Notes under the pieces: generated by a model
Database searches by the model: none
Told to the model about the DNA's origin: nothing
Seen by the model: the letters and a program-made list of their open reading frames with translations, nothing else
From: Promethearchaeota archaeon
GTDB lineage: Archaea > Asgardarchaeota > Lokiarchaeia > Sigyniarchaeales > SOKP01
Assembly (NCBI GenBank): GCA_029838195.1
Contig: JALGVJ010000024.1
Coordinates: 1-64,000 of the forward strand
Direction: 5' to 3'
Length of the DNA: 64,000 bases
Part shown: one piece after another, positions 21,290 through 34,268 of the stretch
Position numbering within the stretch: position 1 is the stretch's first letter
How the letters are laid out: each line of letters opens with the position of its first letter
Position numbers and translations under genes: made by a program

Positions 21290-22102
21290 TTATAGCCCTT
21301 TCGGACCTTGCTCGTAAATCTCATATGCTTCATCAACAGAGGCATTTTCGTGAACAATCGCTCGGACGGCTTGAATCATGCCTATCGGACTATCTGATTG
21401 AAAAATATTTCTTCCCATATCTACGCCTACAGCTCCCTTATCAACAGCATTTTTGGACATTTGTAAGGCGTCCCGCTCCGGAATCTTCTTACCTCCTGCA
21501 ATGACAATCGGCACCGGACAAATGCTCGTTACATCTTCAAAATTATCGCAATAATAGGTTTTTACAAAGGTTGCGCCCATTTCGGCAGCTAATCTGCTTG
21601 CCATGCCCAAATAGCGCGCATCTCTTACCATATCTCGTCCTACAGCTGTAACTGCAAGTACTGGAATGCCATATTCTTGCCCCCAATTGACCAATTTCGA
21701 AAGATTCATGATGGTCTGCTTTTCATACTCTCCTCCTACGAATATTGAACACGTAATCGCCGAAACGTTCAAACGAATTGCATCCTCGATCGTTACATTA
21801 ATTTCTTCATTAGATAGTTCCTTTAACATGCTCGCACCAGCTGAAACTCTTAAAACGATGGGAATGTCCGAGTCAGGGCTCACGCAACTACGGAGCATCC
21901 CTCTCGTGAGCATGAGAGCATCAGCATACTGAAATAAAGGTTCTAAATCTCCAAAGCATTTGAGTGTACCTGGAATGTTGCCAAAATATTCATGAACATG
22001 CATGAATCATGCACGTTTTCCATGATCTACGGCAAGCATCACGCAACGTCCCGTTTTAGGCTTTATAATTCTTGAAAGACGGTTTTGCATTCCCCAATCC
22101 AT
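21290..22102 (-). CDS. lsrF: LsrF-like class I aldolase/thiolase (DhnA/FbaB family); split gene, exon1 22102-22019, exon2 21988-21290, 260 aa spliced
   Basis: [28 protein letters not shown]|YFGNIPG..., [29 protein letters not shown]. Confidence 0.88.
21989..22018 (-). other. 30-nt BHB-type intron in the lsrF-like mRNA
   Basis: CATG/CATG 4-bp helix, bulges GA|A and AA|T, intron hairpin AACGTGCATG-ATT-CATGCATGTT, in-frame TGA; removal restores DHGYF. Confidence 0.88.
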
Positions 22103-29429: not shown

Positions 29430-31256
29430 TTATCCCTTAGAATACGTTCCAAAAAGGGGATAATCTTTTAAAAATGTACCCGTAAAAATCGGTCCCTCCT
29501 TACACACGCATGCGTCATTATTTGGTCCAATACAGCATGAACCGCAAGTTCCCACGCCGCATTTCATTTTCCGTTCTAAAGAAGCTTGTAATTCAATCCC
29601 TTTTTCTGTAGCAATCTCTAGTACTTTTTTCATCATCACTTCAGGGCCGCATGTTATTATTAAATCTATGGGATGCTGGTTTAAAATGTCATCTAAAGCA
29701 TCCGTTACGAGACATTTTTTTCCAACAGAGCCATCATCCGTCGTACATAAAGTATTTGGAATATGTTCTATTAATCTATCGGCAAAAATCAAGGAAGCCT
29801 CGTCTTTTGCTCCGATAGCCACGTATACGTTCTTCTTATTTTGTTTCAAGGGTTCGATTAAAGATGTAAGTGCCGCAATTCCCATGCCCCCTCCTACAAT
29901 GAGGATATTTGTCGCATCTTCGTAATTCCAGGCATTTCCAAAAGGACCACGAATTCCAATTTTATCCCCCTTTTTTAATTCAAAAAGTCTTGAGGTACCC
30001 TCTCCGATTTTTTGCACGGTAATTTCTATTAGGCTGCCATTCACTGCCGATACAGACATTGGGAGGAAATCCACGTCCGGAATCCAAAGAATGACAAATT
30101 GGCCCGGTTTATACGCACTTGCAATTCTGGGGTTTCGAATCACGAACGATTTAATCTCAGCAGAATGCTCAATAATATCTTCTATTATTGAAAGATCCGT
30201 TTTGTTACGGGTGAGTTCAAGGACTAATTCTTCCTCATCCTTTTCTAAAGGAGCAATTTCTATAATTCCTTTATCAACAGCCGCCTCCATTAATTTTTTT
30301 CCTTTTTCCGTTCTAATAATAACGGTTCGCCAGCCTTCCTTACTATTACTCCCCACCTCGCCTATGGATAAATCAGCAAAAGATGCTGTATAATCCGAAC
30401 ACGAAAAGCAAGCCGTTCGAATCGCCTTATCATATAATTCTTTTAGGGAGATATTTTTTTTCTCCGAATCGTGATGAATGATCATTTTAAAGCGGTCGTT
30501 ATCTTTCTCAATTTTTTTAATATTCTCTGAAATAACACCATTCTCCTTGAATAGCTCCATTAAGCCTTGATTATGAAAAGTTCCAAAACAAAACGTTCCT
30601 ATCGCCAGTGTTACTAAATCATACGCCTCAAAATCAAATCTCGGATGATTTTGTAGTTTTCTAAGGGCTTGAACTTGACAAGGCGTTCCCACTACACCTA
30701 TATCCACGAATCCCTTGTTAATCGCTTCTCCGACCAAGGAAAGCGTCGGACTCTGACTTGGTTTATATCCAATCCCCTTAGTTAACTCTTCCTTCGATTT
30801 TGCAAGAAAAGGTTGCGGCCTAAATTTATCATCCTTTGAAGTAATGATTGCTGCATCAATCATTCCTACATCCATCGCAACCCACGATAATGCGGTTATG
30901 ACTCCTGCTTCTATGGGTAATTCTTTACGAGCAGCCTCCGACACGCGTGCTGATACGATCTCAATATAATGCCCTAAAATTTTATCCTGCTGCTTACCGA
31001 ATACCCATTTATCCAGCAATTGCAAGGGAATTTGATTCGTCTCCGTTTTAGGACAAATATTATAGCATAACCCGTATCCATCCCTACAAGTATTAGCATC
31101 CTTACAAGAACCGTCCTCAAATGGACGTTCTTTATCAATATCAAACCGAATATTGGCACAAAACGCTCCGCAAGCCCCACAATACACGCATTTACCCGTT
31201 TCTATTATTTCCTCGTTTAATTCCTTCCACCCCTTCTGAATCTTTTGAATATACAT
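29430..31256 (-). CDS. FrhB/FdhB (F420 hydrogenase beta)-like domain fused to a PyrK-like FAD/NAD/[2Fe-2S] electron-transfer domain
   Basis: CVYCGACGAFC, VGTPCQ, CFSCSD, ADLSIG; then KPGQF, GPFGN, GGGMG, CGP, MKCGVGTCGSC, CKEGP. Confidence 0.88.
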   Translation of the reverse strand: MYIQKIQKGWKELNEEIIETGKCVYCGACGAFCANIRFDIDKERPFEDGSCKDANTCRDGYGLCYNICPKTETNQIPLQLLDKWVFGKQQDKILGHYIEIVSARVSEAARKELPIEAGVITALSWVAMDVGMIDAAIITSKDDKFRPQPFLAKSKEELTKGIGYKPSQSPTLSLVGEAINKGFVDIGVVGTPCQVQALRKLQNHPRFDFEAYDLVTLAIGTFCFGTFHNQGLMELFKENGVISENIKKIEKDNDRFKMIIHHDSEKKNISLKELYDKAIRTACFSCSDYTASFADLSIGEVGSNSKEGWRTVIIRTEKGKKLMEAAVDKGIIEIAPLEKDEEELVLELTRNKTDLSIIEDIIEHSAEIKSFVIRNPRIASAYKPGQFVILWIPDVDFLPMSVSAVNGSLIEITVQKIGEGTSRLFELKKGDKIGIRGPFGNAWNYEDATNILIVGGGMGIAALTSLIEPLKQNKKNVYVAIGAKDEASLIFADRLIEHIPNTLCTTDDGSVGKKCLVTDALDDILNQHPIDLIITCGPEVMMKKVLEIATEKGIELQASLERKMKCGVGTCGSCCIGPNNDACVCKEGPIFTGTFLKDYPLFGTYSKG

Positions 31257-31882
31257 CTACTTTTCTCCCTCCTTTAATTTATTAAGAAATTCTTGAGCCT
31301 CTTTTTTTCCCAATTCAAATGCTTCTAAATTCTTTTCCAAAGCTGATTTGGGAACAAATTCTTTAATTGTCTCTATAGCGGCCTCCTCAGAAAAAAGCCC
31401 GGAGAGAACGGTAAACGCTCCAAACAAGATGGTGTTGCCATATACCCGATCCCCGAACTTTTCTAACGCCATTTTCTGAACCGGAATCGCCAACGATTTT
31501 ACTCGTGCCGCTGTCTTGAACTTGCTTATCGTGGAAGGATCCCATAATAAAAATCCCGTATCTTTTCCCTTCTTTAACTGATTTTTTTTGACATCTTTCG
31601 CCGCCTCCTCAGATAAAATGATCAAAAAATCATAGGGCTCCAAGGCTTTTGGATAATCTATGAGTTTTGTTTCCCTATCTCTATCCACCACGACCTCAGC
31701 CCAACATTTTCCTCCCCGTGCAGATGCTGAATAAGCTTCTGTTTGCGTGGCAGCCAAGCCCTCGTGGATAGCACTTGCCATGGTGATCATCTTCGAGAGG
31801 GTGATAACGCCATAGTCTTTAAGAGGATATCTCTTTAAATTTGACCACCAAACCCGGAAATCCTAATCTCATATCTGTCCAT
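31257..31882 (-). CDS. korC: 2-oxoacid:ferredoxin oxidoreductase gamma subunit; split gene, exon1 31882-31841, exon2 31811-31257, 198 aa spliced
   Basis: MDRYEIRISGFGGQ|GVITLSKMI..., AYSASARGG, NTILFGA, NLEAFELG; GAGGT SD upstream of 31882. Confidence 0.88.
31812..31840 (-). other. 29-nt BHB-type intron in the gamma-subunit mRNA
   Basis: GGTC/GACT 4-bp helix, bulges AA|A and AT|G, intron hairpin TTTAAAGAG-ATATC-CTCTTAAA; removal restores the frame and GFGGQGV. Confidence 0.88.
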
Positions 31883-31887
31883 GGTAT

Positions 31888-32799
31888 TTACCTCATCGCT
31901 ATTTCTTGAATTTTTCTATATTCTTCAGAATATTCAGGTTTATCTGGTTCGTAGCGAAATTCTCCAATGACATACTTGTTAAACAACTCTTTTTCGGTCA
32001 TGAACTTGGCTTGATTAATCCGAACCGAATTTCGCTTGATCCAGTCCATCATGATGCCTGCTCGATCCATCTTCACGCCTTTTTCTCCTACATCCTCCGC
32101 TCCTAAACTGCTCAAGTTTTTTCTGCCAAAATACGTAACGCATGGCGTGATTATTTCGATGACTGACGTGCCTTTATGTCGCAAGGCCTTTTTAAAATAT
32201 TTCATGAAAGTACGGGGATGAGCCACGGTTGTTCGGGCCACGTACGTTGCTCCTGCGGCCAATGCCAATTGCACGCCATCGCTTCTATTTTCAAACATCT
32301 TGTAAGGCGTGGTGGTGCTATTAGCACCATAAAGGGTTGTAGGAGCTCCCTGCCCGCCCGTCATGGCATAAATGCTGTTGTTAAAGATGAATAAAATCGC
32401 ATCCAAATTTCGACGGCATAAGTGAATGAAATGATTTCCTCCAATTCCCAAGCAATCTCCATCACCGGAAAATATGATCGGCTTCAATTTCGGGTTTGCC
32501 ATCTTAATACCCGTGGCAATCGCCGGCGCTCTACCATGTAATGTTAAGATTTTTTGAGCGGCATGATGCACGATTAACATTATTTGTGAATAACAGCCAA
32601 TTCCTACAACTAATGGATATAATCTGGGATCTAATTTCTCATCCTCAAACACGCGGGTATAAATTTGCCCAATTATGCCATAACCGCATCCTGCACAAAA
32701 TCTAGTGGTAAAATTCCCAAAAAGCTTGCCCCCATAAGATGAAGTTAAATAGGGATGTTCAGGCTTCTCGTTTGGAAGCATCTGGCCAATCTCACTCAT
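31888..32799 (-). CDS. korB: 2-oxoacid:ferredoxin oxidoreductase beta subunit (TPP-binding)
   Basis: FCAGCG, GIGC, HGRA, GDGD...GGNH, NNSIYAMTGGQ. Confidence 0.92.
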   Translation of the reverse strand: MSEIGQMLPNEKPEHPYLTSSYGGKLFGNFTTRFCAGCGYGIIGQIYTRVFEDEKLDPRLYPLVVGIGCYSQIMLIVHHAAQKILTLHGRAPAIATGIKMANPKLKPIIFSGDGDCLGIGGNHFIHLCRRNLDAILFIFNNSIYAMTGGQGAPTTLYGANSTTTPYKMFENRSDGVQLALAAGATYVARTTVAHPRTFMKYFKKALRHKGTSVIEIITPCVTYFGRKNLSSLGAEDVGEKGVKMDRAGIMMDWIKRNSVRINQAKFMTEKELFNKYVIGEFRYEPDKPEYSEEYRKIQEIAMR

Positions 32800-32800
32800 T

Positions 32801-33976
32801 TTATTTTGCCACCTCTCTTATTGCATTTAATATATCATCTGGATGATGAAATTCGCATACTTTTGGTATTCTAATGATGGGAGTATCGGGATTAGTCACA
32901 CGCTCTACTTGTTCGGCAATGAATCCGGTATAATTCAATTCCGGAACGATTATCGCTTTGGCATCTTTTATAATCTCTCTAACTTTTTTGAGAGGAAAGG
33001 GCCACACAGTTATTAATCGTAGGATTCCCACTTTAATTCCTTCCTCTCTTGCGATATCCACGGCCCGATAGCTGGAGCGAACGGGAAGGCCATACGCAAC
33101 GATAATGATTTCAGCATCTTCCAGCTTGTAAGTATCCATTAAAGTAATATCGTCAATATTGCTATTGATTTTTTCCAATAGCATCTCTACAAATTGACCG
33201 GGCTTTGGAGTGGGCAATCCATCTGGCCCATGAGGTTGATGAATTAATAGGGAACTTCCGAATTTCGTGCCCATTTGAGAAGGAGGGGGAATGACATACT
33301 TTCCGGATTTAGGGTCCAGATATGAAAAGATTCGACCTCCGACTTCTTCTGGTACTTTTCTCTCCACCACGTGCTCTAAAATCTCTTTTTTGGAAGGTAT
33401 TTTCACTACTTCGTGCAAATGTCCTAAATACGCATCAGATACAATAAATACAGGACATCTATACAACTCGGCATAATTAAAAGCAGTAATGGTCAAATCA
33501 AACAATTCCTGGCAACTCATGGGAGCAATGGCAATAACCTGAAATTCTCCATTACCGGCAAAGCGCATGAGCCCAAGATCATTATGATGAGGCTCCGTCA
33601 CGAAGCCCGTACCGGGTCCATTTCGCTGCACGTCACAAAACACGAACGGGACTTCTAAATTTGCCGCCATGGATATCGTTTCGGTCATTAAACTCAAACC
33701 TGGCCCAGATGTCGCCGTCATGGCTTTTGCTCCCACTAATGACGCACCAATCACGGCATTAATGGATGCCAATTCATCTTCCATTTGCATGCAACATCCT
33801 CCTACTTGCGGTAATCGCATGGCTAAATGCTCTATTACTTCAGTACTCGGAGTAATCGGATATCCGCCAAAAAATTTCAATCCTGCGGAAATGGCTCCTT
33901 CTGCCATGGCAACATTCCCCATCATGAGATATTTTCCTTCCGGTAAAAACCTTTTTCCATTATCTTCTTCACTCAT
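32801..33976 (-). CDS. korA: 2-oxoacid:ferredoxin oxidoreductase alpha subunit
   Basis: GYPITPSTE, QMEDE, TATSGPG, QRNGPGTG. Confidence 0.92.
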   Translation of the reverse strand: MSEEDNGKRFLPEGKYLMMGNVAMAEGAISAGLKFFGGYPITPSTEVIEHLAMRLPQVGGCCMQMEDELASINAVIGASLVGAKAMTATSGPGLSLMTETISMAANLEVPFVFCDVQRNGPGTGFVTEPHHNDLGLMRFAGNGEFQVIAIAPMSCQELFDLTITAFNYAELYRCPVFIVSDAYLGHLHEVVKIPSKKEILEHVVERKVPEEVGGRIFSYLDPKSGKYVIPPPSQMGTKFGSSLLIHQPHGPDGLPTPKPGQFVEMLLEKINSNIDDITLMDTYKLEDAEIIIVAYGLPVRSSYRAVDIAREEGIKVGILRLITVWPFPLKKVREIIKDAKAIIVPELNYTGFIAEQVERVTNPDTPIIRIPKVCEFHHPDDILNAIREVAK

Positions 33977-33986
33977 GTTATCCCTC

Positions 33987-34268
33987 CTAAGTTTTGGCTT
34001 TTTTAGCTTCTACCGATGATAATTGGCTTTCATCTAAAATATAAATTGCCCAATCAGGACATCCAAATTCACATCGACGGCATGCTGTACAATATTTTTC
34101 TTTTCCCTCTTTCACTTTCGGAATAAACGATACTCTCATGTTAAGCTCATCGCTCATTTCCAAGATTCCCGTGGGACAGAGCGTCACGCACGATTCGCAA
34201 CCTCCGCAGCGGTTCTTATTCAAGAAGAGGACAAAATGTTTTTCTTTATTTTCGATTAATTTTGGCAC
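33987..34268 (-). CDS. korD: 2x[4Fe-4S] ferredoxin (oxidoreductase delta subunit)
   Basis: CGGCESCVTLCP, CTACRRCEFGCPDWAI; first gene of the operon. Confidence 0.85.
   Translation of the reverse strand: MPKLIENKEKHFVLFLNKNRCGGCESCVTLCPTGILEMSDELNMRVSFIPKVKEGKEKYCTACRRCEFGCPDWAIYILDESQLSSVEAKKAKT

Follow-up and report, generated by a model that had tools for sequence, protein, structure and literature searches.

A predicted bulge-helix-bulge intron in the gamma-subunit gene of a 2-oxoacid:ferredoxin oxidoreductase from a Promethearchaeota archaeon

The oxidoreductase operon and its interrupted gamma gene

The window analysed here is a 64-kb stretch of DNA, corresponding to contig C90 in the 4.5-Mb genome (94 contigs, 33% G+C) of a Promethearchaeota (Asgard) archaeon. 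This genome is G000 in what follows; other G-numbers denote genomes of its family and L-numbers denote loci. The minus strand of the window carries genes for the delta, alpha, beta, and gamma subunits of a 2-oxoacid:ferredoxin oxidoreductase (POR/OFOR), followed by a fusion gene with FrhB/FdhB-like and PyrK-like parts (Table 1). As the original prediction had stated, the subunit genes other than gamma are intact. The FrhB/PyrK-like neighbor, which also follows the gamma gene in relatives, is intact too. Reading of the sequence places the gamma ATG 5 nt past the beta stop codon, with GAGG upstream.

The gamma gene is split by a 29-nt insert. If the insert is left in place, the reading at this point is CAA AUU UAA and the product is a 15-residue peptide; the claim of a frameshifting 29-nt insert with an immediate stop was thus accurate in both coordinates and sequence. 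Gene callers give the gene a length of 177 aa instead of 198 aa. The part downstream of the insert (exon 2) matches the Pfam POR profile (PF01558) over profile positions 4-171 of 173 (E 1.4e-23), and the NCBIfam profile for the gamma subunit of 2-oxoacid:ferredoxin oxidoreductase over positions 14-179 of 181, with scores under the NCBIfam equivalog cut-offs that do not fix the substrate of this gamma subunit (2-oxoglutarate or other). Exon 1 supplies the N-terminal residues missing from the POR match of exon 2, as in 198-aa orthologues, and its peptide agrees with the N-terminus of uninterrupted orthologues. A paralogous gamma gene (C34:41675-42157), flagged as having an internal TGA, was also considered; it runs in one frame throughout and contains no intron.

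The surroundings of the gene vary among relatives. In several of them (L012, L037, L163, and L164), A+T-rich non-coding DNA, and not the beta gene, lies upstream of the gamma and FrhB/PyrK pair, which is thus separated from the genes for alpha, beta, and delta. At L037 and L163, the aligned start position of exon 1 reads ATC or ATA, neither of which is a standard start codon.

Table 1 Features of the gamma-subunit locus and of the aldolase insert in the 64-kb window. A bar marks a predicted cut or the resulting junction.
Feature	Position	Strand	Details
Delta subunit (2x[4Fe-4S] ferredoxin-like)	33987..34268	-	Intact, 93 aa
Alpha subunit	32801..33976	-	Intact, 391 aa
Beta subunit (TPP-binding)	31888..32799	-	Intact, 303 aa
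Gamma-subunit exon 1	31882..31841	-	MDRYEIRISGFGGQ; ATG at 31882
Insert	31840..31812	-	29 nt, AUUUAAAGAGAUAUCCUCUUAAAGACUAU; in-frame UAA at bases 4-6; frame shift +2
Gamma-subunit exon 2	31811..31257	-	GVITLSKMITMAS..., begins GVITLSK; 184 aa + stop
FrhB/FdhB-like + PyrK-like fusion gene	29430..31256	-	Intact, 608 aa; ATG abuts gamma stop codon
Central helix H, 5' strand GGUC	31846-31843	-	Last exon-1 bases ahead of the bulge; pairs with 31817-31814
Central helix H, 3' strand GACU	31817-31814	-	Intron side; pairs G.U, G-C, U-A, C-G
5' bulge AA|A	31842-31840	-	Predicted cut between 31841 and 31840
3' bulge AU|G	31813-31811	-	Predicted cut between 31812 and 31811
Intron helix h', UUUAAAGAG / CUCUUAAA	31839-31818	-	UUUAA(A)GAG strand; 8 bp, one bulged A, loop AUAUC
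Aldolase insert	21989-22018	-	30 nt, canonical BHB; CAUG GA|A ... CAUG AA|U, 10-bp hairpin (strict scan)

Bulge-helix-bulge geometry and splicing machinery

The insert and the exon bases next to it can be arranged into the motif known as bulge-helix-bulge (BHB), and all elements of the geometry originally described hold, namely a 4-bp helix of GGTC and GACT, bulges AAA and ATG, an outer helix of ~2 bp, and a junction that does not slide. The exon-side helix h consists of a U.G and a G-C pair only and thus measures 1-2 bp. The endonuclease EndA cuts between the second and third bulge residues (PMC2738675). Cleavage at this point in both bulges would give ...GGU CAA|GGC GUU... and the peptide GFGGQ|GVITLSK, as in uninterrupted orthologues, so that the spliced reading has the typical gamma N-terminus that had been foreseen for it. 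As the intron begins with A and exon 2 with G, the junction cannot slide.

We assessed the motif with a strict rule that requires a 4-bp helix H with at most one G.U pair, 3-nt bulges, and at least five contiguous base pairs in the intron helix h'. This arrangement occurs in 138,952 of ~7.5e8 trials in the genome, a frequency of 1.9e-4 per fixed position and length. The 29-nt site is recovered by the strict scan of the genome, and the BHB register at this site is fixed independently by protein homology. Folding of the 68-nt region is no more stable than that of shuffles (z = 0.14), and the canonical BHB of G000 (-5.5 kcal/mol) is not the minimum free energy (MFE) fold (-12.2 kcal/mol), for which reasons the structural support rests on geometry and covariation, not on energy. 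The MFE fold keeps the 5' bulge, H, and h', and absorbs the 3' bulge into two extra pairs that extend H. In the four other carriers scored (G049, G105, G075, and G104), the canonical fold comes to about -0.7 to +6 kcal/mol.

Six genomes, from at least three genera, share a homologous 29-nt insert at this site, and the six sequences align without gaps. The central helix H is paired in all six introns (100% of cells), with alternation between G.U and G-C and with one compensatory change, from U-A to A-U in G049, whose exon side is the synonymous change GGU to GGA. In h', two pairs have changed on both sides across the six introns. For the helix h, 83% of cells are paired across the six sequences. 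Overall, 89.3% of cells are paired, versus 31-57% when the partners are slid, and none of 500 shuffles reaches the observed score. The sequences are only six and are related, so that independent events are few, and the covariation lends support to the structure without settling it.

Genes for both EndA and RtcB were identified in the genome. Matches to PF01974 scored 100.7 and 66.4 bits, together with a weak third. The catalytic alpha subunit of EndA is present (202 aa; TIGR00324, 110 bits), as are a second, beta-like EndA paralogue of 199 aa and RtcB (553 bits). The three genes lie at L001:1459-2067 (minus strand; alpha), L002:1201-1800 (plus strand; beta-like), and C23:93378-94685 (RtcB). 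Asgard archaea have been assigned an (alpha-beta)2 type of EndA, in which the L1 loop gives a broad substrate specificity and which tolerates a short h (PMC5829648). Introns were called by ARAGORN in 23 of the only 36 tRNAs that it found in the genome, which agrees with the literature, where Asgard tRNA genes are described as heavily interrupted; some of these tRNA introns are implausibly long (818-2401 nt). The low count suggests that many tRNA genes were missed in this genome owing to multiple or non-canonical introns.

A genome-wide census of strict BHBs whose removal (20-45 nt) fuses two open frames found 463 in the true register and 386-441 in four controls with frame-shifted acceptor sites. 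The excess falls short of significance, as junctions between same-strand genes drown out the signal. A junction test based on paralogues likewise did not separate the signal from the controls. The protein collection for the species cluster of G000 contains truncated gamma forms only (174-182 aa) and no 198-aa spliced form.

We consider it probable, at roughly 85%, that the 29 nt are a genuine archaeal BHB intron in a protein-coding message, from which EndA cleavage and RtcB ligation would yield a 198-aa gamma subunit; cleavage and ligation in vivo are steps that we infer from sequence. The delta-alpha-beta-gamma-(FrhB/PyrK) transcript would fold locally, with the exon-1 end GGUC pairing with GACU in the 3' part of the intron, and two 3-nt bulges and the intron hairpin would flank the GGUC/GACU helix. 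A heterotetrameric (alpha-beta)2 EndA would cut after the second base of each bulge, and RtcB would ligate the exons and probably also circularize the intron. The predicted spliced junction is GGUGGUCAA|GGCGUUAUC and the predicted junction peptide is ISGFGGQGVITLSK; the spliced RNA (...GGU CAA GGC GUU...) would be translated into full-length, 198-aa gamma with its GFGGQG motif, and translation of unspliced RNA would terminate within two codons of entering the insert. In all likelihood the intron itself is functionless and would be tolerated because it is removed.

Inserts in relatives and alternative readings

To place the insert among relatives, we searched the family with a full-length orthologue. 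The gamma gene is present in 76 of 135 family genomes, and in about 65 of these 76 it is uninterrupted over the N-terminal region; 20 orthologues that were read directly have an uninterrupted ...GGN GGN CAA|GGN GUN... at the junction. Inserts, all of 29-31 nt, occur at five positions within the first 46 codons of the gene. Site A, after Gln14, has the 29-nt insert in G000, GCA_054386595.1, G049, G105, G075, and G104. One base beyond it, site A' is occupied by 30 nt of unrelated sequence in G006 and GCA_019057835.1, and site A'', in the Ile17 codon, has a 30-nt insert in one Logan contig. Site B lies in the Ser42 codon (29 or 31 nt; G104, G136, and G134) and site C in the Arg46 codon (30 nt; G006 and G049). 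At each of the five positions, the inserts form a canonical or one-mismatch BHB, and their removal restores the conserved protein exactly. A gene tree based on the C-terminal 150 residues comprised 43 rows, and three Helarchaeota-like rows were excluded because their matches were short. On this tree, carriers of the site-A insert occupy at least four distinct places, so that several losses or lateral spread must be invoked.

Two members of the family differ along the length of the gene. The gamma DNA of G006 (L012, AMARA_1S) and G049 (L037, TEKIR_6S) is identical from about codon 20 on, including the site-C intron, whereas 5' of this point the two are only ~75% alike and have unrelated introns one base apart. 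This pattern points to a recombination breakpoint inside the gamma gene. MAGs placed in the family by genome search (L070, L071, L089, L105, L110, and L111) are labeled by their submitters as Hodarchaeota, Thorarchaeota, Hermodarchaeota, or Odinarchaeota, and these labels look inconsistent with the gamma-gene phylogeny.

A second gene in the window, encoding a DhnA/LsrF-like aldolase, also contains a BHB insert, which splits the DHG|YF motif (Table 1). G001 (same genus) and G016 (a different genus) have this insert too, with hairpin changes that compensate each other, and it is absent at the DHG|YF site in G020, G014, and G003. Further inserts of ~30 nt were observed at two other aldolase positions, AGG|KK and GVD|MGRN, at L153 (G003), L159-L161 (G017, G006, and G015), and L162 (G004); the G004 aldolase has three inserts in the single gene. 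In the aldolase gene of L150 (G013:C144), two conserved Glu codons of FVGGEYEKQ read TAA (FVGG*Y*KQ) with the length unchanged, which could be sequencing error, decay, or recoding.

The insert sites are clustered, with the five positions in gamma and at least three in the neighboring aldolase gene. It is possible, as a tentative reading of these comparisons, that the family of G000 has dynamic ~30-nt BHB introns in ordinary protein genes, which would be gained repeatedly at clustered sites, persist because the splicing motif is selected, and pass from one lineage to another through recombination.

The insert might alternatively act as a regulatory gate, as the original prediction had inferred, with a rate-limiting or condition-dependent removal that controls the supply of gamma and, through translational coupling, of the abutting FrhB-PyrK protein. 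Such a switch would be consistent with the immediate stop in the unspliced RNA, with the downstream ATG that abuts the gamma stop codon, and with the conservation of the intron, which exceeds that of synonymous sites (4 of 29 intron positions differ between G000 and its closest carrier, GCA_054386595.1, at a synonymous pS of 0.37). However, this conservation is accounted for by the need to keep the BHB, and most orthologues have no intron at all, which speaks against a regulatory role that is conserved. Carriers are dispersed over the gene tree and neighboring sites hold different, unrelated introns, which fits tolerated insertions better than a conserved switch, and we regard a gate as unlikely.

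According to another alternative, a hairpin-forming insertion stays in the RNA, and the gene is a pseudogene or yields a truncated 177-aa product from the AUG at 31790. The gene callers annotate truncated products only (P0002, 177 aa; P0123, 182 aa) and the BHB fold is weak, as this alternative would have it, but the substitutions between two carriers, G000 and GCA_054386595.1, speak against it. Exon 2 has a dN/dS of 0.058 at a dS of 0.51, and in exon 1 all six changes within codons 3-14 are synonymous; exon 1 of the GCA_054386595.1 copy starts with ATA, which is not a standard start codon. By these measures, both exons are under purifying selection in carriers with the insert in place. This is not expected for a disrupted gene, and in exon 1 it is not expected if that exon were no longer translated in frame with the rest. 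In addition, the insert is kept in all six genomes with its helix maintained, the gene and the operon are otherwise without defects, and the exact BHB register is very unlikely to arise by chance. On this comparative evidence, the insert shows the properties of a conserved, selected feature and not of a broken gene, and we consider a dead gene very unlikely. The original prediction of a BHB intron in place of a pseudogene is supported by these findings, by the other BHB inserts in the same gene, and by the presence of EndA and RtcB.

We also considered that the 29 nt could stem from assembly or sequencing and be absent from the DNA of the organism. Coverage is low in the metagenome behind the source MAG (word depth ~3-5x across the runs compared), and run X1 has a coverage break at 31776-31822. 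However, four DNA sequencing runs match parts of the 64-kb stretch, and Logan contigs from other studies contain the insert without an indel: one from run X2 is identical over 31789-32034, insert included, and one from run X3, of a different study, spans 31752-32151 without gaps and with 9 substitutions, of which those listed are mostly at third codon positions and none falls inside the intron. A homologous insert is also present in the separate MAG GCA_054386595.1 and in four further genomes. An assembly artefact, a concern raised with the original prediction, is extremely improbable in view of these contigs and the second MAG. The 29 nt were also considered as a repeat or mobile element and rejected as such; a blastn-short search against the genome found no second copy, just chance matches of 11-17 nt. 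Higher-depth Logan contigs from three runs match 18 nt of the intron (31823-31840) and have a 24-nt match to the end of the beta gene (31902-31925), ~365 nt away and on the opposite strand; these matches are probably due to chance or to another organism.

Translational recoding, in which ribosomes would bypass the 29 nt (hopping like that in phage T4 gene 60) or shift frame on uncut RNA, is barely credible: a stop codon and then a hairpin do follow the take-off position, and in three relatives the insert ends in ...GAUCAA, similar to the exon end GGUCAA, but this likeness is an expected by-product of the near-palindromic central helix, the G000 insert ends in GACUAU and a matching landing codon is not conserved, and the features that are conserved are the BHB pairs.

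Relation to known archaeal introns

Taking the gamma insert as a spliced BHB intron, its kind is known from cbf5, and what it adds is deep conservation, selection that can be measured, and the clustering of five intron positions within a single gene. In Crenarchaeota, the pre-mRNA intron of cbf5 was reportedly described by Watanabe in 2002 and by Yoshinari in 2006. A hetero-oligomeric EndA cleaves this intron between residues two and three of the bulge (Yokobori 2009; PMC2738675), splicing of archaeal protein genes other than cbf5 was merely predicted (PMC2738675), and cbf5 was named as the only archaeal coding example as of 2020 (PMC7714728). Like the cbf5 intron, the gamma intron is a short BHB intron located inside a coding sequence at a conserved motif, and its patchy distribution resembles that of cbf5 introns in implying gain and loss (PMC2738675). 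It is nevertheless the same kind of intron and not the same intron, as it does not share the cbf5 position in the catalytic Asp codon. In contrast to cbf5, the host gene encodes a metabolic enzyme subunit within an operon (POR/OFOR gamma), the lineage is Promethearchaeota, and a single gene has several distinct intron positions. The gamma BHB is canonical, whereas most cbf5 introns have been described as unconventional BHBs. Splicing has been shown for cbf5, while for gamma it is predicted from the sequence.

Similarities also extend to the non-canonical and multiple tRNA introns of Asgard archaea, which share the presumed machinery and the motif, are similarly short, and have been gained repeatedly at BHB-capable sites (PMC11291895; bioRxiv 10.64898/2026.10.13.758758). 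Unlike these, the gamma intron has an mRNA as its host, so its removal has to be exact enough to keep the reading frame, and splicing has translation as a competitor. In Haloferax volcanii, a BHB intron in the 5' UTR of HVO_1309 was detected as circular RNA and cleaved in vitro (PMC7714728). It is an EndA substrate within an mRNA, as the gamma intron is predicted to be, but lies in an untranslated leader and leaves the coding sequence uninterrupted. The literature searched yielded nothing on BHB introns in Asgard protein-coding genes.

With the gamma intron, mRNA splicing that depends on the endonuclease would reach the archaea most closely related to eukaryotes, and two questions are raised, namely how splicing holds its own against coupled translation and by what route such introns are acquired. 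Genes of this type come out truncated or split in gene calling, with the consequence of distorted metabolic reconstructions and completeness estimates for Asgard MAGs. If ~30-nt BHB introns are indeed dynamic in the protein genes of this family, mRNA splicing by the tRNA machinery would be routine in these closest relatives of eukaryotes among the archaea, and the gain of introns there might use active insertion (for example, reverse splicing and reverse transcription) and not chance.
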